DNA of 32,000 nucleotides from Dickeya dadantii NCPPB 898 (lineage in GTDB: Bacteria; Pseudomonadota; Gammaproteobacteria; Enterobacterales; Enterobacteriaceae): positions 4,579,545-4,611,544 of the forward strand of contig NZ_CM001976.1 in NCBI RefSeq assembly GCF_000406145.1, in the 5' to 3' direction. Position numbers and translations under genes: made by a program. Numbering within the stretch: position 1 is the first letter of the stretch; each line of letters starts with the position of its first letter. Below are positions 7,334 to 31,277 of the stretch, one piece after another. The notes under the pieces are model-generated. The model did no database searches. It was given only the letters and a program-made list of their open reading frames with translations, and was not told where the DNA came from.

Positions 7334-7666
7334 ATGATACCCCCTGACGATACCCCGCCGCGCGATCCGGGCCTACAGCCGGAACGCACTCGGCTTGCCT
7401 GGTCGCGGACCGCATTTGTGCTGCTGGTCAACAGCGTACTGCTGTTGAAAGCCGGCTCGATGAAAAGCCAGCCACTGATGCTGGTCATCGGGCTGTTTCT
7501 GCTGCTGATGACGCTAGTCACCTATATCTGGTCGCGCCTGCGGTTGCGCGCCCTGCTGCGCAGCGGCTATCCCTGTACCCGGCAATCGATGTGGATGATG
7601 CGGCTGCTGATGCTGACGGTCATGGTGACCGCATTAAGCTTGCTGGTGGGTTTCATCAACGGTTAA
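7334..7666 (+). CDS. yidG: DUF202 inner-membrane protein, YidG-like
   Basis: 110 aa. DPGLQPERTRLAWSRTAF motif followed by hydrophobic segments. Starts 6 nt after the yidH-like stop. Confidence 0.75.
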   Translation: MIPPDDTPPRDPGLQPERTRLAWSRTAFVLLVNSVLLLKAGSMKSQPLMLVIGLFLLLMTLVTYIWSRLRLRALLRSGYPCTRQSMWMMRLLMLTVMVTALSLLVGFING

Positions 7667-7801
7667 ACACGATCGCCGCGCGTATTTTTCGTCAATACAG
7701 AAGATTTTGATCTGCCTGCCCCGACATAACCCGCCGCTATACCCTGCGGGCATTTGGAAACAGTAATTCTTAAATAACAATAAATTAAACCAACCTCACC
7801 C

Positions 7802-7831
7802 TATAACATCAGGTTATACCCTACCTATAAA
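7802..7831 (+). promoter_or_regulatory. Candidate promoter with an operator-like palindrome upstream of the dgcN-like operon
   Basis: Perfect 6-5-6 inverted repeat TATAAC-atcag-GTTATA (7802-7818). It overlaps ATAACA (7803-7808), a 17-nt spacer and TATAAA (7826-7831), inside a 250-bp AT-rich intergenic region. Confidence 0.3.
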
Positions 7832-7917
7832 CAAGCATTCGTCAGAAAAAAAGCATCGTGGAATAGTCTTAAACATCTTCTTTTATGTCATCACTACGCA
7901 ACTACGGATAAGACATC

Positions 7918-8925
7918 ATGCTGATCCCACAACCTTACCTGCTTTTTCTTGGCGACGTGACCGACCCGCTGGCGGTAAAAACGGCGCGCGGCATTCACAC
8001 CTGGCGCCCCGAACAGTGCGTAGGACAGCTGCGCCTGCCGGGCAGCACGGTGTCGCTGGGGCTCGATGATCTGGATATTCCGTCCGCCGTGGCGCGCGGC
8101 GCCAAAACGCTGGTGCTGGGCACCGCCAACGCCGGCGGTTTACTGCCGCCGCACTGGCTGGATACCGTGCGTGCCGCCATCGAAGCCGGTATGAACGTCG
8201 CCAACGGCCTGCATCAGCGCCTGATCGACGTCCCCGGCTTACAGGCACTGGCGGAGCAACATCAGGTACAGTTGTTCGATATTCGTCATATGCGCCCGGA
8301 GCTGACCGTCGGCAGCGGTAAGAAACGCAGCGGCAAACGCGTGCTGACCGTCGGCACCGACTGCTCGGTCGGCAAAATGTACACCTCGCTGGCGCTGGAA
8401 TCCGCCATGCGCGCACAGGGTCTGAAAGCCGATTTCCGCGCCACCGGACAGACCGGGGTGCTGGTCGCCGGCGATGGCATCGCCATTGACGCGGTGATCG
8501 CCGACTTCATCGCCGGCGCGGCGGAAGCGCTGTCACCCGCCAACGACGATGACCATTGGGATATCGTCGAAGGTCAGGGTTCGCTGTTTCATCCGTCCTA
8601 CGCCGGGGTGACCACCGGTCTTATCCACGGCGCACAGCCGCACTGGCTGGTGATGTGCCACGAAATGGGTCGTCCGCACATGCGTCACCTGCCCCATCAG
8701 CCGATGGTGGAACTGGGCGACTGCGTGGACGCCAACCTGCGCGCCGCCCGCGTCACCAACCCGGATGTACAGTTGGCCGGTTTCGCCATCAATACCTCCA
8801 ACTATGGTGAACAGGCAGCGCGCGATTACTGCCGCGAACTGAGCGAACGTTTTGGCGTGCCCGCCACCGACCCGATCCGCTTCGGTATCGATGACATTGC
8901 AACGCTGCTGAAAACCCGGGGGTAA
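7918..8925 (+). CDS. dgcN: DUF1611-family protein (D-glutamate N-acetyltransferase DgcN-like)
   Basis: 335 aa. The GTDCSVGKMYTSL P-loop-like motif and overall layout are as I recall for PF07755. It is paired with an enolase-superfamily epimerase 4 nt downstream, the DgcN/DgcA arrangement. Confidence 0.7.
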   Translation: MLIPQPYLLFLGDVTDPLAVKTARGIHTWRPEQCVGQLRLPGSTVSLGLDDLDIPSAVARGAKTLVLGTANAGGLLPPHWLDTVRAAIEAGMNVANGLHQRLIDVPGLQALAEQHQVQLFDIRHMRPELTVGSGKKRSGKRVLTVGTDCSVGKMYTSLALESAMRAQGLKADFRATGQTGVLVAGDGIAIDAVIADFIAGAAEALSPANDDDHWDIVEGQGSLFHPSYAGVTTGLIHGAQPHWLVMCHEMGRPHMRHLPHQPMVELGDCVDANLRAARVTNPDVQLAGFAINTSNYGEQAARDYCRELSERFGVPATDPIRFGIDDIATLLKTRG

Positions 8926-8929
8926 ACCC

Positions 8930-9895
8930 ATGCGACAAATGCAAATCGAAACCGTGGAACTGCCGCTGGCCCGTCCTTTCGCCATTTCCCGCGGTACCCG
9001 TACCGCCGTCACCGTGGTACGGGTGACGCTGGAAGAGCGCGGCTTTATCGGCCGGGGAGAATGCACCCCCACCGCCCACTATCAGGAAACCGCCGACAGC
9101 GTGACCCGCCAGTTGGAAACCGTGCGTCGGGTGGTAGAGAACGGCGTCGGTCTGGATGCGTTGCAGCAGCTGTTGCCGCCGGGATCGGCCCGCAACGCGC
9201 TGGACTGCGCCCTGTGGCGGCTGAACGCCGCGCTTGCCAGACAGACGCTGTGGCAGCACCTCGCCATCGCGCCGCCGCAGTCGATCATCACCGCCGAAAC
9301 CCTGAGTCTCGACAGCGTGGAAAACATGGCCAATGCCGCCAAAGACGCGGTTTCCCGCGGCGCACTGCTGCTGAAAATCAAGCTCGACCGGGAACAGATT
9401 CTGGAAAAGGTAGCGGCGATTCGCCAGTCCGCGCCCAACGTGACGCTGATTGTCGACGCCAACGAAGCCTGGAGCGGGCTGGAACTGGAGCCGCTGCTGC
9501 GCCAGTTGGCCGCGCATCGCATCGCGATGGTGGAACAACCGTTGCCCGCCGGGCAGGACAGCGCGCTGGCGACGTTTGAACACGCCATTCCGGTGTGCGC
9601 CGACGAAAGCTGTCATTACCGTGGCGACATTGCCGCCCTGCGCGACCGTTACGAGATGATCAATATCAAACTGGACAAGTGCGGCGGGCTGACCGAAGCG
9701 CTGGCGATGGTGGCCGAAGCGCGCCAGTACGACATGCGCATCATGGTGGGCTGCATGCTCGGCTCCTCGCTGGCGATGGAGGCCGCCATGCCGGCGGCGC
9801 TGGCCGCCGAACACGTGGATCTGGACGGCCCGATCTGGCTGGCGGCGGACAGCTCGCCGTACCTGACCTATAACCTCGGCCGCATCTGGCTGTGA
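8930..9895 (+). CDS. dgcA: Enolase-superfamily (MR/MLE) dipeptide epimerase / N-acetyl-D-Glu racemase DgcA-like
   Basis: 321 aa with the KxK (LLKIKLD), DANEAW, MVEQP, CADES and NIKLDKCGG catalytic and metal-ligand motifs of L-Ala-D/L-Glu epimerase-type enzymes. Confidence 0.75.
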   Translation: MRQMQIETVELPLARPFAISRGTRTAVTVVRVTLEERGFIGRGECTPTAHYQETADSVTRQLETVRRVVENGVGLDALQQLLPPGSARNALDCALWRLNAALARQTLWQHLAIAPPQSIITAETLSLDSVENMANAAKDAVSRGALLLKIKLDREQILEKVAAIRQSAPNVTLIVDANEAWSGLELEPLLRQLAAHRIAMVEQPLPAGQDSALATFEHAIPVCADESCHYRGDIAALRDRYEMINIKLDKCGGLTEALAMVAEARQYDMRIMVGCMLGSSLAMEAAMPAALAAEHVDLDGPIWLAADSSPYLTYNLGRIWL

Positions 9896-17375: not shown

Positions 17376-18335
17376 ATGAAACCGGTCATTGTGATTCATG
17401 GCGGCGCGGGCGCGCTCAGTCGCACGGCGATGGACAGCGAGAAAGAACAGCGCTATCGCGCCGCGTTGCAGAGCATCGTCGCCCGCGGGCAGGAAATCCT
17501 GGCCGCCAACGGCAGCGCGCTGGATGCGGTCACCGAGGCGGTGCGCCTGCTGGAAGAGTGCCCGCTGTTCAATGCGGGCAAAGGGGCGGTGTTTACCCAC
17601 CGCGGCACCCACGAACTGGACGCCAGCATCATGGACGGCCGTTCGCTGGAAGCGGGCGCCATCGCCGGTGTTAACCACATCCGCAACCCGATTCTGGCGG
17701 CCCGCGCGGTACTGGAGCGCAGCCCACACGTGATGTTTACGGCGGAAGGCGCTGAAACGTTCGCCCGCGAGCAGGGGCTGGAGATGGTCGAACCGGACTT
17801 TTTCTCCACCGACGAGCGCTACCAGCAGTTGCTGAAAGCGCAGACGGGCGACGGCAAGATCCTGCTGGATCACGATGGCGAACGTCAGGCGCAAGGCGCC
17901 GATCCGCTCGATCCGGATCGCAAGTTCGGTACCGTTGGCGCAGTAGCGCTGGACGCAGCCGGTAATCTGGCGGCGGCGACCTCCACCGGCGGCATGACCA
18001 ACAAACGCGCCGGACGCGTCGGCGACTCGCCGATCATCGGCGCAGGCTGTTACGCCAACAACCGCACCGTCGCCGTCTCCTGCACCGGCACCGGCGAGGT
18101 GTTCATGCGCACCGTCGCGGCGTACGACGTTTCGGCGTTGATGGAATACGGTAACCTGCCGCTGTCGCAAGCCGCCGATAACGTCGTCATGGAAAAAGTG
18201 CTGGCGCTGGGCGGCAGCGGCGGGCTAATCGCCGTTGACCATCAGGGCAATATCGCACTGCCGTTCAACAGCGAAGGCATGTACCGCGGCTATGGTTACG
18301 TCGGCGAAGACGCGGTCGTGGGGATTTATCGGTAA
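17376..18335 (+). CDS. iaaA: Isoaspartyl peptidase / L-asparaginase (Ntn hydrolase)
   Basis: 319 aa. HGGAGA, autoproteolytic Gly|Thr in KFG|TVGAVALD, TSTGGMTNK, GDSPIIGAG; collinear with E. coli IaaA. Confidence 0.9.
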   Translation: MKPVIVIHGGAGALSRTAMDSEKEQRYRAALQSIVARGQEILAANGSALDAVTEAVRLLEECPLFNAGKGAVFTHRGTHELDASIMDGRSLEAGAIAGVNHIRNPILAARAVLERSPHVMFTAEGAETFAREQGLEMVEPDFFSTDERYQQLLKAQTGDGKILLDHDGERQAQGADPLDPDRKFGTVGAVALDAAGNLAAATSTGGMTNKRAGRVGDSPIIGAGCYANNRTVAVSCTGTGEVFMRTVAAYDVSALMEYGNLPLSQAADNVVMEKVLALGGSGGLIAVDHQGNIALPFNSEGMYRGYGYVGEDAVVGIYR

Positions 18336-18411
18336 AATGATCCCCGCTGTACCTGCACGTTAGTCAGGTTATATTCCACACGATTCATCTTTACTGGTGG
18401 ATAGTGGTCAA

Positions 18412-18451
18412 AATGGCGAACCCGGACCTTGCACCGGATTCGCCATTTTTA
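18412..18451 (+). terminator. Rho-independent terminator ending the nine-gene operon
   Basis: AATGGCGAACCCGG-accttgca-CCGGATTCGCCATT (14-bp stem, 1 mismatch) followed by TTTTT. Confidence 0.75.
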
Positions 18452-18657
18452 TCCGTCAGTACCTCAGTTTTACTCCAGGCACCAGCCACTCACGTTTTGT
18501 AATAACGATAACCAACCGGGCAGCAGACGATAGCAGCGATCCAGCTCGCAACAAATGATTAAGTCCACAATATGTAACATGTTGTTACTATGATTAAATG
18601 AATAATTAAAATACAATTCCTTCTAATGTATGTTATTACGGTAAGTAAAGGTCAGAC

Positions 18658-19977
18658 ATGCCTCGTATTGTTTTTCATCATATTAATAAATGTGCAGGCA
18701 CATCGCTGCTCAAGTATCTACAAAACCTTTTTCCGTCCGATGAGTGTATTTACTTAGAAGAACACTACAGTGGGATGAATTCCGGCGATGTTGAATTTGA
18801 TCCGAATCGGCTGGCACGGGCGCGGTTTATTCACGATCCATTCGGCAGTTGGTACTGGCCTGAGAAAGTAGCGAACGTCGCGACCATATGCTTTTTACGA
18901 GACCCGTTAGACAGGGTGGTGTCTAACTGGTGGATGGTGCATCGTTGGACTGACGAGGAAGTTGCCGTTATACCTGATGGCGAGCTTATTCGTGATTTAG
19001 CCCGCAATGATCAGGTAGCATTTTTCAGCCACCCACAATCCCTGTACATTAACTGGAACCAAATTACCTGCCACCTGGCCTGTGCACCCAGAGAATACCG
19101 GGAAGCCCGGCGAACAGACTCCCTCAATAGTAAGGATTTTCGAGCCTTCATCCGAAAACGTGCTGAGGAAACGCTACGTTCACTGTCTTTTATCGGCTTT
19201 CAGGAAGATTTTAAGCGTTCGTTATCCGCGCTGCAATTATGGCTGTCGCTCCCTCCCGACCAGCCGCAGCCGATGAATATCCACGCCAGTAAACAGCAAA
19301 AGCCGAGCTTAAGCGAAGAGGCGATAGCAGCGGCCAATCAGCTGGTTGATCTCGACCAGGAAATCGTTGCGATTGCCCGCGAACTTTACGACGAGCAAAT
19401 GGAGCGCTTCGAGGCGACCTATGGTGTGGATTTTGCGAGCGCGGCTGAAGATAACTACCGCAAGGCTTTGATCCGCCCGGCAGGCTGGACCGTTGTGGAC
19501 ATGTCGCAACCATTGAACGGCACAGGGTGGCATTGCCGTGAGCAGAATGAAGGCAAGTTCAGCCGCTGGATTGGCCCGACGCCGACGGCAACCATCGATA
19601 TTCCATTCACGAAAGACCGGGATATTCTGGTGCGATTTAGGGTCACAAATATCCTGTCTACACGCCAGGTTGATGAGCTCATATTGAAAGTTGATGATTA
19701 CACCGCACCCCTGCATCGGTGGTCAGAAAGCACGTTCGTCGTGGTTTTTGATGCGGTCATACCGCAGCAAGAACTAGACCACACTAATGACATTCTGCGG
19801 TTGACGATCGATTGTGCCGAAACGATTACCATGACCGCCCCAGGCGATGGTCGTCAGCTCGGCCTTGAGATCTGTGAGATTGAAGTCGGCCCATCGGATG
19901 CCTTCATACTCCAGTCACCCGGCACCCCGGCGACCGCGCTGGGCCTGCTGGGAGTTTCATCCAGCAGGAACGATTGA
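18658..19977 (+). CDS. Orphan sulfotransferase-family protein with an uncharacterised C-terminal domain
   Basis: 439 aa. PAPS 5'-phosphosulfate loop HINKCAGTS (aa 8-16) and 3'-phosphate motif FLRDPLDRVVS (aa 79-89). The C-terminal part (about aa 275-420) has a GWHxxE...RW...RQLG pattern with alternating hydrophobic residues that look beta-rich. The gene and its flanks are visibly AT-rich. Confidence 0.6.
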   Translation: MPRIVFHHINKCAGTSLLKYLQNLFPSDECIYLEEHYSGMNSGDVEFDPNRLARARFIHDPFGSWYWPEKVANVATICFLRDPLDRVVSNWWMVHRWTDEEVAVIPDGELIRDLARNDQVAFFSHPQSLYINWNQITCHLACAPREYREARRTDSLNSKDFRAFIRKRAEETLRSLSFIGFQEDFKRSLSALQLWLSLPPDQPQPMNIHASKQQKPSLSEEAIAAANQLVDLDQEIVAIARELYDEQMERFEATYGVDFASAAEDNYRKALIRPAGWTVVDMSQPLNGTGWHCREQNEGKFSRWIGPTPTATIDIPFTKDRDILVRFRVTNILSTRQVDELILKVDDYTAPLHRWSESTFVVVFDAVIPQQELDHTNDILRLTIDCAETITMTAPGDGRQLGLEICEIEVGPSDAFILQSPGTPATALGLLGVSSSRND

Positions 19978-20004
19978 TGTAATAACACTTTCACTCATGA
20001 TCAT

Positions 20005-20033
20005 GGCAGAGGAGAGATAACTTCTCCTCTGCC
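20005..20033. terminator. Hairpin downstream of the sulfotransferase gene
   Basis: GGCAGAGGAGA-gataact-TCTCCTCTGCC, an 11-bp perfect stem 28 nt after the stop codon. No T-run. Confidence 0.4.
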
Positions 20034-20130
20034 GCGTACATAGGTATTAAGTTAGCCATAGCCTTTGCTGATTTAGGGGTGGTCGCAACAGGAAGACCCG
20101 GCGATGGCTAAGTAGCGATAAAAACGCACC

Positions 20131-21642
20131 TCACCCGCGCTGATAGCGCACTACCCGGCTGCGGTTCAGCAGCAGCGTCAGATAGCCGTCTTGCACCCGC
20201 AGCGAGAAGCGTTTCTCCCACGGGCCGTCCTGCACCGTGGCGAGCGCGCGGCCGTTGCCGAGCGATTGCAGAGAGCCGGCGATCGCCGCCGGGCCAAGCC
20301 CCATCACGATACGATCGCCGTCAATCACCAGTTCGCTGCGGGTGTCCGGCCAGTGCCAGCGGCCTTGCAACTGCATCACGCTGTTGTCAGCCTCCACCGG
20401 TAGGAACCGGCATGGCGCGTGACCGATTTCCCCTTCGATCGCCATACCGTTCTGCCTAAGCTTCATCGGCAGATGACTGGATAACGACACCGCCACGCCC
20501 GGCTCATCGCTGCGGTACAGGGTTTCGGTCGCGCCCAGCCAGCAGGCACCCAGACCTTTCACCTCCAGCCAGTGGCCGCCGTGCTCCGCCGCGTACAGCC
20601 CCGGCGTCAGATCATGCCCGCGCGCCGGCAGCGGCTGGTCCAGCAAGGCGGACATCACCCGCAGCGCGCTGTCGTAAGTGGCGACATCTTCCCGGTTGGC
20701 GACCAGCGCCACCCCGACCTGCAATACCGGATCAAGCAGGAAGTAGCTCTTATAACCCGCGTGCGAACCGCCGTGCCCCACCAGCAGCGCGTCGCCGAGG
20801 CGGCTGTGCGCCACGCCCAGCCCGTAACCGGTGACGCGACCGTCGCGCAGGTAACGCGGCTGGGACAGACGCGCCAGCACGCCTTCGCCCGGCCCCTGAT
20901 TGATCAGCAGCGATTGCAGCCAGACCGTCAGATCGCGCACGCTGCCGGTGACGCAGCCGGAGGTGGACAGATGCAGCCCGGCGCAGGACAACTGCCAGCC
21001 CTGCGGCGATGGCCAATAGCCCGGCACCAGTCCGGGCACGATATCAAACCAGGTTTCCGGCGCGCTGAGCGCGATCCCCAGCGGTTGGTTGACGTGCTGG
21101 CGCAGCAGGTCGGCGAAATAGATACCTTTGGCTTTCAGCGCTTCTTCCACCAGCCGGTAACCGGTATTGGTGTAGGAGATCTCGCTGCCCGCCGGGTAGT
21201 TCAGGTCGCCGTTGTCCGCCAGAAACGCCAGCAGGCTGTCGGCCGAGGTGGCGTTGTACACCGACAACCCCAGCAGCGACAGACTTTCGCGCACGTCCGG
21301 CAGGCCGGAAGTCATGTCCAGCGCCTGCCCGACCGTCACCTTGCCGTTTTCACCGGTCAACTGCGGCAGGTGTTGATCGAGACGGTCGGTCAACGCCAGC
21401 GCATGGCTGGCGGCTCCCGTTACCTGTGAAGCGAACAGATGTTTGGTCACCGAGGCGAAACGCACCACGCTCTGGGTGGTGAATGGGGTATTCTGCGCCA
21501 AATCCGCCAGCCCGCCGCAGCAGGCGGCACGGATCTGTTCGCCGTCGAACAATGTAATGGCGCCACCCGGCTCGCCGGGCTGATTCCAGGATTGCGCGAT
21601 CGCGCGCGCCTCATCAATGGCGCGCTGCCAGTGCAATGTCAT
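20131..21642 (-). CDS. S12 serine hydrolase, D-stereospecific aminopeptidase (Ochrobactrum DAP)-like
   Basis: 503 aa. SxxK (SVTKH), YxN (YTNTGY) and GHGG motifs, plus about 170 aa of C-terminal extension as in DAP. No signal peptide. The ATG overlaps the upstream ATPase stop (ATGA). Confidence 0.7.
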   Translation of the reverse strand: MTLHWQRAIDEARAIAQSWNQPGEPGGAITLFDGEQIRAACCGGLADLAQNTPFTTQSVVRFASVTKHLFASQVTGAASHALALTDRLDQHLPQLTGENGKVTVGQALDMTSGLPDVRESLSLLGLSVYNATSADSLLAFLADNGDLNYPAGSEISYTNTGYRLVEEALKAKGIYFADLLRQHVNQPLGIALSAPETWFDIVPGLVPGYWPSPQGWQLSCAGLHLSTSGCVTGSVRDLTVWLQSLLINQGPGEGVLARLSQPRYLRDGRVTGYGLGVAHSRLGDALLVGHGGSHAGYKSYFLLDPVLQVGVALVANREDVATYDSALRVMSALLDQPLPARGHDLTPGLYAAEHGGHWLEVKGLGACWLGATETLYRSDEPGVAVSLSSHLPMKLRQNGMAIEGEIGHAPCRFLPVEADNSVMQLQGRWHWPDTRSELVIDGDRIVMGLGPAAIAGSLQSLGNGRALATVQDGPWEKRFSLRVQDGYLTLLLNRSRVVRYQRG

Positions 21643-30165: not shown

Positions 30166-30417
30166 ATGAAGAAGCGTTTTTCCGACGCACAGATCATCAG
30201 TACCCTCCGCGAAGCGGAAGCCGGGGTTTCTGTGAACTCTGCCGTAAGCACGCCATATCCGACGCCACGTTTTACAACTGGCGTAAGAAGTATGGAGGTG
30301 CCCGAGGTTAAGCGCCTGAAGTCGCTTAAGGAAGAGAACGCTCGACTCAAGAAGTTGCTTGCAGAAGCCATGCTGGATAAGGAAGCCCTTCAGGTAGCCT
30401 TTGGTCGAAAGTACTGA
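30166..30417 (+). pseudogene. IS orfA with two compensating frameshifts across the HTH
   Basis: The annotated frame reads ...GVSVNSAVSTPYPTPRFTTGVRSMEVPEVKRLK. The conserved IS3-family motif ELCRKHAISDATFYNWRKKYGG is encoded in another frame at 30234-30299. The flanking N-terminal (MKKRFSDAQIISTLREAEAG) and leucine-zipper parts stay in frame. Confidence 0.7.
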
Positions 30418-30440
30418 CGATAGACCTGAAGCGGGAAGCC

Positions 30441-31277
30441 GTGGTGTTGATGTGTGATGCGACCGGTCTGTCGCAACGTCGTGCATACGGGCTTACAGGT
30501 TTGTACCTGTCGACCTGCCGCTATGAGGCGCAACGCGCGGCCGCTGGTGCGCATTTATCAGGACGTATCACTGAGCTGGCACTGGAGCGCAGGCGTTTTG
30601 GCTACCGCCGGATATGGCAGCGGCTGCGCCGAGAAGGACTTCACGTTAATCACAAGCGCGTGTACCGCCTTTATCATCTCAACGGACTGGGCGTAAAACG
30701 CAGACGACGTCGTAAAGGGCTGGCAACAGAACGTCTGCCGCTGCTCCGCCCGGCGGCCCCCAATCTGACCTGGTCGATGGATTTTGTCATGGACGCATTG
30801 GCCATCGGTCGCAGAATCAAGTGTCTGACCTGCGTGGACGACTTTACGAAAGAGTGTCTGACGGTGATGACCGTTGCCTTTGGGGTTTCCGGCCTTCAGG
30901 TAACGCGTATTCTGGGCAGTATTGCGTTGTTTCGTGGATATCCTGGGACGATAAGAACCGATCAGGTACCTGAATTTACCTGCCGGGCACTGGATCAGTG
31001 GGCCTTTGAACACGGAGTGAAACTGAGGCTAATCCAGCCGGGCAAACCAACACAGAACGGGTTGATAGAGAGCTTTAACGGCCGCTTTCGTGATGAATGT
31101 CTGAATGAGCACTGGTTCAGCGACACCATTCACGCCAGGAAAACCATTAATGACTGGCGGCAAGACTATAACGAGTGCAAGCCCCATTCGGCACTGAATT
31201 ATCAGACGCCATCAGAGTTTGCAGCAAGGTGGCGAAACAGCGAATTTGGAAGTAAACAAACCGACATTACTAACTGA
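30441..31277 (+). CDS. IS3-family transposase orfB (DDE integrase domain)
   Basis: The frame is open from 30381, in -1 relative to orfA. An A_AAG slip site at 30408-30411 would give the fusion ...AFGRK-VLTIDLKREAVVLMCDATGLSQRRA, typical of IS407-group OrfAB. Confidence 0.8.
   Translation: MVLMCDATGLSQRRAYGLTGLYLSTCRYEAQRAAAGAHLSGRITELALERRRFGYRRIWQRLRREGLHVNHKRVYRLYHLNGLGVKRRRRRKGLATERLPLLRPAAPNLTWSMDFVMDALAIGRRIKCLTCVDDFTKECLTVMTVAFGVSGLQVTRILGSIALFRGYPGTIRTDQVPEFTCRALDQWAFEHGVKLRLIQPGKPTQNGLIESFNGRFRDECLNEHWFSDTIHARKTINDWRQDYNECKPHSALNYQTPSEFAARWRNSEFGSKQTDITN

Follow-up and report, generated by a model that had tools for sequence, protein, structure and literature searches.

The sulfotransferase gene examined here lies within a 32,000-nucleotide stretch of Dickeya dadantii NCPPB 898 (NZ_CM001976.1, positions 4,579,545 to 4,611,544; hereafter the window, numbered from its first nucleotide) and is carried on a compositionally foreign, horizontally acquired islet inserted between two convergent peptide operons. 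Our overall reading of the gene, on which our confidence is evenly balanced, has three parts. The product would be a soluble, cytoplasmic enzyme dependent on 3'-phosphoadenosine-5'-phosphosulfate (PAPS), in which a catalytic domain like that of heparan sulfate 6-O-sulfotransferase (HS6ST) is fused to a beta-sandwich of the carbohydrate-binding module (CBM) type. The gene would be what survives of a glycan-decoration cassette in which a sulfotransferase gene was paired with one for an Acyl_transf_3 (AT3) O-acyltransferase; this cassette would have entered the locus in a Dickeya ancestor, and the present lineage subsequently lost the acyltransferase gene. The likeliest acceptor would be the undecaprenyl-diphosphate-linked 6-deoxy-D-altrose homopolymer of the Dickeya wzm/wzt pathway: the beta-sandwich would hold this polymer against the inner membrane on its cytoplasmic side, and the catalytic domain would transfer sulfate to it from PAPS ahead of export by the ABC transporter.

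Catalytic domain

The assignment of the N-terminal domain to the PAPS-type carbohydrate sulfotransferases is solid, as judged from profiles and a structural model. Pfam Sulfotransfer_2 (PF03567) matches residues 3-252 with 28.1 bits (gathering cutoff, 22; E = 2.7e-6), the alignment spanning positions 10-250 of the 252 in the profile, and most homologues also carry a precomputed match to this model. A profile built from 16 family members matches the HS6ST structure 5t03 (E = 1.7e-6) with both PAPS motifs aligned: IVFHHINKCAGTS is placed on IVFLHIQKTGGTT of HS6ST at the 5'-phosphosulfate-binding (5'-PSB) loop, and FLRDPLDRLVSNW on MLRDPVSRYLSEW at the 3'-phosphate-binding motif. For the full-length AlphaFold2 (AF2) model (pLDDT 84, pTM 0.78), the best Protein Data Bank (PDB) neighbor in Foldseek is HS6ST chain 5t05_B (E = 9.9e-6, probability 1.00, 309 columns); the TM-score of 0.37 for this pair is normalized to the whole two-domain query.

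The initial annotation of this DNA, made from the sequence alone, had recognized the two PAPS motifs, HINKCAGTS and RDPLDRVVS, in the 439-amino-acid product and had named a different fold, or loss of the catalytic lysine or serine, as grounds for abandoning the assignment. The fold is that of a sulfotransferase by all three approaches above, and both motifs are conserved in the family, out to homologues of 24 to 29% identity. K11, A13, G14, T15, and R81 are each retained in at least 90% of the sequences, whereas C12, P83, and S89 are invariant. The P-x-x-R-x-x-S pattern is the PF03567 consensus, and the lysine loop and the 3'-phosphate motif together define that family (PMC11625862).

Neither a transmembrane or hydrophobic segment nor a signal peptide was predicted in the 439-amino-acid protein, which suggests that the enzyme is cytoplasmic. 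PAPS is made in the cytoplasm during enterobacterial sulfate assimilation.

Several other matches were set aside. A single-sequence search of the PDB returned chance-level matches only (a transcarbamylase, E ~0.01), a Pfam iHD-CE match to the protein was below threshold, and the Foldseek matches to diphtheria toxin, STAT5, and GH156 had low probabilities and TM-scores. An NCBIfam scan gave nothing for the sulfotransferase or for its AT3 partner.

C-terminal domain

The C-terminal part of the protein, which the initial annotation had been unable to assign, can now be placed in the CBM-like beta-sandwich fold class, and the module turns out to recur in many proteins, most often joined to a sulfotransferase. 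Residues ~275-415 already form a beta-sandwich in the full-length AF2 model; modeled by itself from a deeper alignment, the domain reaches pLDDT 92.4 and pTM 0.87. In both fold searches its neighbors were CBM29, MiXBM, CBM6, CBM35, CBM15, malectin-like, Nictaba, and hyaluronan-binding modules; Foldseek gave TM-scores of 0.43 to 0.63 against the CBMs, with probabilities of ~1.0 and E values of 1e-3 to 1e-2. The resemblance does not extend to sequence. A Pfam scan of the domain and of 32 diverse homologous domains found no CBM family at E <= 1, only traces of DUF7024 and DUF5077, and the domain profile had no sequence match among PDB chains. Curated CBMs such as CBM6, CBM29, CBM35, CBM15, MiXBM, and malectin thus share a fold class with a domain that lacks a Pfam match, a PDB sequence match, and a Foldseek match at E <= 1e-3; moreover, curated CBMs belong to extracellular glycoside hydrolases, whereas the Dickeya domain is part of a predicted cytoplasmic biosynthetic enzyme.

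Of 1.84 billion cluster representatives, 1,086 match the domain profile at E <= 1e-3, a number that falls to 281 at E <= 1e-10. The domain is often C-terminal in proteins of 420 to 460 amino acids and sometimes occurs in up to five copies. When 83 proteins with the domain were scanned against Pfam, 48 were sulfotransferases (Sulfotransfer_2, 31; Gal-3-O_sulfotr, 15; Sulfotransfer_1, 2), and the other fusion partners included Wzy_C, polysaccharide pyruvyl transferase, GT1/GT4, PMT_2, and DUF7024. Since a widespread module of CBM fold is almost always fused to glycan-modifying enzymes, the domain is most simply read as one that would bind the acceptor. Multicopy arrays were seen among proteins of 1,100 to 1,450 amino acids, of which P0020, P0026, and P0039 have four or five stretches of the domain; P0020 also has a weak match to PMT_2, a membrane glycosyltransferase.

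Insertion of the islet between two peptide operons

Comparison of the window with an empty site in D. undicola 2B12 (L014) by BLASTN delimited the islet: homology stops at 18332 and resumes at 20127, which leaves approximately 1.8 kb between about 18333 and 20126. The initial annotation had correctly described a single-gene islet but had drawn its limits at 18452 and 20130. The empty-site search was anchored on the right-flank gene, which encodes a 503-amino-acid protein of beta-lactamase fold, and recovered 58 loci, among them only two further Dickeya species. This gene and the Asparaginase_2 (iaaA-like) gene are direct convergent neighbors in D. undicola 2B12, in two Symbiopectobacterium genomes, in a record labeled Serratia marcescens, and in Brenneria, and at the empty sites (L014, L017, L018, and L022) only 60 to 80 bp separate the two. 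The ancestral spacer carried a bidirectional terminator hairpin, and the islet took its place. Among the 58 loci, the sulfotransferase gene adjoins an orthologue of the 503-codon gene only in Dickeya.

The composition of the islet also deviates from that of its surroundings. The open reading frame (ORF) has a G+C content of 52.0%, compared to 59.7% for the window; the third-codon-position value (GC3) is 0.56, compared to 0.79 to 0.81 in the two flanking genes; and the relative synonymous codon usage (RSCU) of the gene correlates with that of its neighbors at 0.62, whereas the neighbors correlate among themselves at 0.90 to 0.98. The earlier hand counts of G+C (22 of 60 bases at 18661-18720 and 42 of 60 at 17401-17460) were exact on recomputation. 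Based on the empty sites in close relatives and on the deviant composition and codon usage, it is concluded that the islet is a horizontally acquired insertion, as had been proposed. No integrase, transposase, or other phage or insertion sequence (IS) gene lies between 17376 and 21642, no flanking direct repeats or terminal inverted repeats were found at the islet boundaries, and an Rfam scan detected no RNA family and no tRNA at the islet.

The position of the gene could be taken to mean that, like RaxST, the enzyme has an acceptor connected with the flanking operons, be it a peptide, a protein tyrosine, or a small molecule, and a secreted or imported peptide was indeed among the acceptors initially suggested. 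The operons, whose Pfam content comprises SBP_bac_5, ABC ATPases, Peptidase_S58, Peptidase_M55, Asparaginase_2, and a beta-lactamase fold, recommend this view by their location alone. However, D. undicola, Symbiopectobacterium, and Brenneria have both operons in unchanged form but no islet, so that the linkage is an accident of insertion and the proximity to peptide genes is uninformative about the function of the sulfotransferase; elsewhere, homologues never adjoin peptide genes. RaxST and TPST belong to Sulfotransfer_3, and a Pfam scan of the 439-amino-acid protein gave no match at E <= 1 to that family (PF13469) or to Sulfotransfer_1 (PF00685). NodH is a Sulfotransfer_3 member as well (PMC11625862). 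Together with the CBM-like C-terminal domain, whose fusion partners are glycan enzymes, these observations make a peptide-directed role very improbable, and a carbohydrate acceptor is preferred.

Homologues and the lost acyltransferase partner

The full-length family comprises 18 clusters among 5.8 billion proteins, and the nearest database protein, from D. dadantii, is 98% identical; a sequence identical to that of the window belongs to the D. dadantii cluster. The gene is not the orphan it first appeared to be. It is found in D. dadantii (Dda3937_03245 in strain 3937), D. solani (A4U42_09785 in IPO 2222), D. dianthicola, D. fangzhongdai, D. chrysanthemi, and D. zeae with its ORF intact, and in most Dickeya species it is annotated as a sulfotransferase family 2 protein. 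The GenBank entries Dda3937_03245 and A4U42_09785 give a product of 400 amino acids beginning at M40; this start is almost certainly miscalled, since it omits the conserved 5'-PSB loop (residues 8-16).

Nor did the gene always stand alone. In D. zeae (L010 and L011) and in L072, a metagenome contig of Dickeya type, the islet occupies this same locus and also encodes an AT3 membrane acyltransferase of 383 amino acids; in D. fangzhongdai only its last 46 codons survive, and in the window nothing of it is detectable. An orthologous AT3 gene adjoins the sulfotransferase gene in four nonsyntenic contexts (L002, L003, L008/L009, and L012). These adjacencies, at the islet and elsewhere, indicate that the ancestral unit was a two-gene cassette of which the window carries a reduced form. 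The only annotated relative of the AT3 protein in a phage collection is an O-acetyltransferase encoded beside a tail spike gene, at 22% identity.

Loss of the partner raises the question of whether the sulfotransferase gene is itself a silent or decaying relic that makes no contribution under normal conditions, with a foreign, AT-rich promoter that may be bound by H-NS. The AT3 remnant in D. fangzhongdai and its disappearance from the window fit such decay, as do the AT-rich upstream DNA, in which a sigma-70 promoter scan found no consensus match, and the fact that sulfate has never been reported on the O-polysaccharide. The gene is likewise not mentioned in the Dickeya literature and transposon insertion sequencing (Tn-seq) supplements that we searched by locus tag and for Dickeya sulfotransferases; a mention of NodH in PMC5122149 concerns a different locus. 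Silencing by H-NS, which the initial annotation had raised, is plausible for AT-rich foreign DNA. Against decay, the ORF is intact in at least six Dickeya species, the catalytic motifs are all conserved, and the ratio of nonsynonymous to synonymous substitution rates (dN/dS) against orthologues is 0.07 to 0.16 in each domain, comparisons between AT3-less lineages included. These ratios show that the gene is maintained by purifying selection and is not decaying, and we regard the relic explanation as distinctly improbable compared with a working enzyme.

Glycan context and probable acceptor

The O-polysaccharide is the best-supported, though unproven, candidate for the acceptor, a proposal that draws on gene context and on analogy with known pathways. 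In the metagenomic relatives L004/L005, a homologue of 71% identity is encoded after gmd, wzm, wzt, an epimerase gene, a gene for a 401-amino-acid glycosyltransferase (GT), manB, manC/PMI, and a GT4 gene; in L012, also metagenomic, a homologue of 62% identity and its AT3 partner are encoded between the two GTs of a wzm-wzt-epimerase cluster. Proteins with 59 to 61% identity to the 401-amino-acid GT of L004 occur in D. zeae, D. oryzae, D. chrysanthemi, D. dadantii, and D. undicola, and the gene content of L004 agrees with the Dickeya O-antigen lipopolysaccharide (LPS) cluster described in PMC7877592. The survey of homologue neighborhoods suggested in the initial annotation thus yielded both the AT3 partner and the wzm/wzt clusters; of the acceptors it had listed, an envelope glycan such as LPS accords with the O-antigen-cluster context, whereas a peptide does not accord with operons that are intact without the islet. 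In the wzm/wzt pathway, the polymer is finished on undecaprenyl diphosphate in the cytoplasm and exported afterward, and such a polymer would therefore suit a cytoplasmic PAPS enzyme.

The most distant homologue (L006 2319-6207; 22% identity) lies two genes downstream of a gene for adenosine 5'-phosphosulfate (APS) kinase, the enzyme that makes PAPS, and near a GT4 gene. In L006, the APS kinase, GT4, and sulfotransferase genes share a strand and fit within 4 kb, small unannotated ORFs separating them, and this set could be a self-contained module for PAPS supply and sulfation. The homologue of 30% identity in Asticcacaulis endophyticus (L001 1-9600) lies beside genes for two giant RTX/cadherin-repeat proteins (>1,300 and 1,957 amino acids) and an ABC2 membrane permease, a setting that differs from the enterobacterial ones and might hint at a glycosylated adhesin or other exported polymer. 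The context of the distant P0021 was uninformative. A metagenome scan with the family alignment added one further locus only, so that the context statistics stay small.

Several observations weigh against the reading set out at the beginning. Only two independent contexts (L004/L005 and L012) place the gene inside an O-antigen cluster, and the others are uninformative or different, as in Asticcacaulis; in Dickeya itself, the window included, the gene sits outside that cluster. Published work gives the O-polysaccharide of D. dadantii 3937 and D. solani as a plain ->2)-beta-D-6-deoxy-altrose-(1-> polymer, with no sulfate or acetyl group reported (PMC6336734), and both species carry the sulfotransferase gene; sulfation of the bulk O-polysaccharide under laboratory conditions is therefore unlikely. 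The CBM likeness of the C-terminal domain is one of fold class, with no match better than E = 1e-3. Finally, for the catalytic base, a histidine in the HS 2-O and 6-O enzymes, there are two candidates. These, H8 and H59, are each retained in at least 90% of family members, and the hidden Markov model (HMM) alignment to HS6ST leaves out residues 22-69. Sulfation that is substoichiometric, terminal, or condition dependent is possible, as is another acceptor.

One such alternative is a working carbohydrate sulfotransferase that modifies some other envelope or secreted glycan, for example, enterobacterial common antigen, a capsule or exopolysaccharide, the LPS core, or a glycolipid. The lack of linkage between the Dickeya gene and any glycan cluster and the absence of sulfate from the published O-polysaccharide would both be expected if this were so. 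Moreover, L002, L003, and L008 show the AT3 partner only and no O-antigen genes, one D. solani record labels the protein WcbF, a capsule-cluster name, and the L004 contig has a second polysaccharide cluster, of the wzx type, just downstream. However, the sole biosynthetic clusters in which homologues occur are wzm/wzt clusters of the Dickeya O-antigen type, and, to judge from established O-antigen biology, a cytoplasmic enzyme would fit polymers that depend on an ABC transporter and are completed in the cytoplasm. We consider another glycan unlikely and continue to favor the wzm/wzt-dependent O-polysaccharide.

Comparison with known systems

The proposed enzyme is reminiscent of HS6ST (5t03 and 5t05) and other PF03567 glycosaminoglycan sulfotransferases, with which it shares the fold, the 5'-PSB loop (h-h-H-I-x-K-x-x-G-T), the 3'-phosphate-binding motif (RDPxxRxxS), and, by prediction, the use of PAPS on a polysaccharide acceptor. 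Unlike HS6ST, to which it is 16 to 17% identical and which is a type II membrane protein of the Golgi apparatus, the Dickeya protein is bacterial and predicted to be soluble in the cytoplasm; the animal enzymes lack the extra C-terminal beta-sandwich, and the Dickeya acceptor would not be a glycosaminoglycan. Likewise, NodH, which sulfates Nod factor, Mesorhizobium loti KpsS, which sulfates fucosyl residues, and mycobacterial Stf0 use PAPS to decorate glycoconjugates, whether at the surface or secreted, of bacteria that associate with plants or other hosts (PMC11625862). NodH belongs to PF13469 and Stf0 to PF00685 (PMC11625862), whereas the Dickeya protein matches neither; a fused CBM-like domain, which the Dickeya protein has, is not mentioned for NodH, KpsS, or Stf0 in that source.

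As a genetic unit, the cassette resembles the O-antigen decoration modules of the Oac/OafA type, which encode Acyl_transf_3 proteins and are often mobile or phage borne. The Dickeya cassette is likewise optional, laterally acquired, small, and outside the main O-antigen cluster, and its partner gene is also of the Acyl_transf_3 family. It differs in that the survivor is a cytoplasmic sulfotransferase rather than a membrane acyltransferase and in that no phage or IS genes flank it, and its action on the O antigen is a proposal from context. The kinase-methyltransferase WbdD of Escherichia coli O9a offers a further parallel, as a cytoplasmic enzyme that adds a small anionic group to a wzm/wzt polymer, which is what we propose for Dickeya, and the sulfotransferase gene is within such a cluster in the relatives L004/L005 and L012, although not in the window or in other Dickeya. 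Terminator systems of this kind are accompanied by a Wzt protein with a cap-reading carbohydrate-binding domain; in contrast, Wzt in the L004 and L012 clusters has 242 amino acids and matches ABC_tran only, and the Wzt of D. dadantii NCPPB 898 itself is encoded outside the window. The Dickeya protein has no coiled-coil ruler, and its gene is dispensable for the locus, being absent from D. undicola 2B12. In view of the missing Wzt domain, a WbdD-like terminator role is not supported.

Noncoding elements and neighboring genes

The coordinates of the islet, its gene, and the surrounding features are given in Table 1.

Table 1. Features of the sulfotransferase islet and its flanks in the window
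Feature	Position	Strand	Basis
Sulfotransferase gene; 439 aa, soluble and cytoplasmic (predicted)	18658..19977	+	ORF call; no transmembrane segment or signal peptide; AF2 model
N-terminal catalytic domain, residues 1-270; PAPS-dependent carbohydrate sulfotransferase fold	18658..19467	+	PF03567; profile against 5t03; Foldseek 5t05
5'-PSB loop HINKCAGTS, residues 8-16 (K11)	18679..18705	+	Aligns with IQKTGGTT of HS6ST
3'-Phosphate-binding motif RDPLDRVVS, residues 81-89 (P83-x-x-R86-x-x-S89)	18898..18924	+	Aligns with RDPVSRYLS of HS6ST
C-terminal beta-jelly-roll, residues ~275-415, of predicted CBM type; motifs GWHxxE, SRWxGP, DxRxLGxE	19480..19902	+	Domain model; Foldseek
Inserted islet, ~1.8 kb, in place of ancestral ~80-bp spacer between convergent genes	18333..20126	.	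BLASTN; composition; codon usage
Left flank: Asparaginase_2 (iaaA-like) gene, end of peptide-uptake/peptidase operon, outside islet	17376..18335	+	PF01112; adjoins 503-aa gene at empty sites
Right flank: beta-lactamase-fold (D-aminopeptidase-like) gene, end of convergent peptide ABC operon, outside islet	20131..21642	-	PF00144; orthologues in 58 loci
Hairpin followed by UUUUUAU, on left end of islet; probable terminator of upstream iaaA-like operon	18410..18449	+	16-nt arms, 94% complementary; -23.5 kcal/mol, z = -4.0
AT-rich upstream region (140 bp, 35% G+C); presumed promoter/regulatory region of sulfotransferase gene	18518..18657	+	Composition
Perfect 6-3-6 dyad GTAACAtgtTGTTAC	18574..18588	.	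Unique in window; 0 expected in shuffles
Hairpin with perfect 11-bp stem, 28 nt past sulfotransferase stop codon; likely transcript end or barrier between convergent genes	20005..20033	.	-24.3 kcal/mol, z = -5.9 on + strand

D. fangzhongdai also has the hairpin found near the left end of the islet, but D. zeae lacks it. The one downstream of the sulfotransferase gene also folds on the minus strand and has no U-tract. The marked AT richness of the 140 bp upstream of the gene was as initially described, and in the final ~100 bp of this region conservation is good between D. dadantii, D. zeae, and D. fangzhongdai. The dyad that it contains was confirmed at the exact position first given; however, it is perfect only in the window, is imperfect in D. 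zeae (TGTTGC) and D. fangzhongdai (CATTAC), is absent from more distant loci, and folds no better than shuffled sequence (z = -1.05), and it was therefore rejected as a conserved operator. Small upstream ORFs (48 amino acids on the minus strand, 53 on the plus strand, and a 50-amino-acid gene called in L011) are probably not coding, their protein sequences being unconserved between species. The noncoding block at 18495-18565 is more conserved than its surroundings among the same three species; a plus-strand reading that ends in TITNRAADDSSDPARNK and a stop codon is common to D. dadantii and D. zeae but not to D. fangzhongdai, and the block might represent what is left of the 3' end of a vanished gene, or else have a regulatory role.

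Three further observations concern the neighborhood. In D. oryzae ZYY5 (L015 7510-13506) the locus is rearranged, with different ORFs downstream of the 503-codon gene in place of the iaaA-like gene and the islet. At the head of the upstream peptide ABC operon are DUF1611 (P-loop) and MR_MLE-family (dipeptide-epimerase-like) genes (7918-9895), which follow a dip to 46% G+C at 7601-8000; with S58, M55, and isoaspartyl-type peptidases at its end, the operon looks as if it may serve unusual peptides, possibly containing D-amino acids. The second low-G+C stretch of the window (30384-31277, with low G+C to 32000) is explained by an IS3-family insertion sequence, which comprises an Rfam IS1222 ribosomal frameshift element (30384-30501; 131 bits) and an rve/HTH_21 transposase ORF (30441-31277).

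Implications

Very few bacterial polysaccharide sulfotransferases have, to our knowledge, been characterized, and we know of no sulfated O antigen in the soft-rot Pectobacteriaceae. A bolder form of our proposal, which we think unlikely, is that the 6-deoxy-altrose O-polysaccharide bears sulfate at substoichiometric levels or at its nonreducing end, where nuclear magnetic resonance (NMR) analysis of the polymer would have missed it, and that the C-terminal domain represents a new, large family of cytoplasmic polymer-binding modules. If so, this family would tether sulfotransferases and other decorating enzymes to lipid-linked glycans. The domain occurs in more than 1,000 protein clusters and has no curated model; learning its ligand would annotate many hypothetical sulfotransferases together.

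For Dickeya, sulfate on the O-polysaccharide would alter chain length, recognition by phage tail spikes, or perception by the plant immune system. An economically important plant pathogen would then have a hidden and variable modification of its surface charge, with relevance for phage therapy, in which Limestone and PP35-type phages use the Dickeya O antigen as their receptor, and for immune recognition by the plant host.

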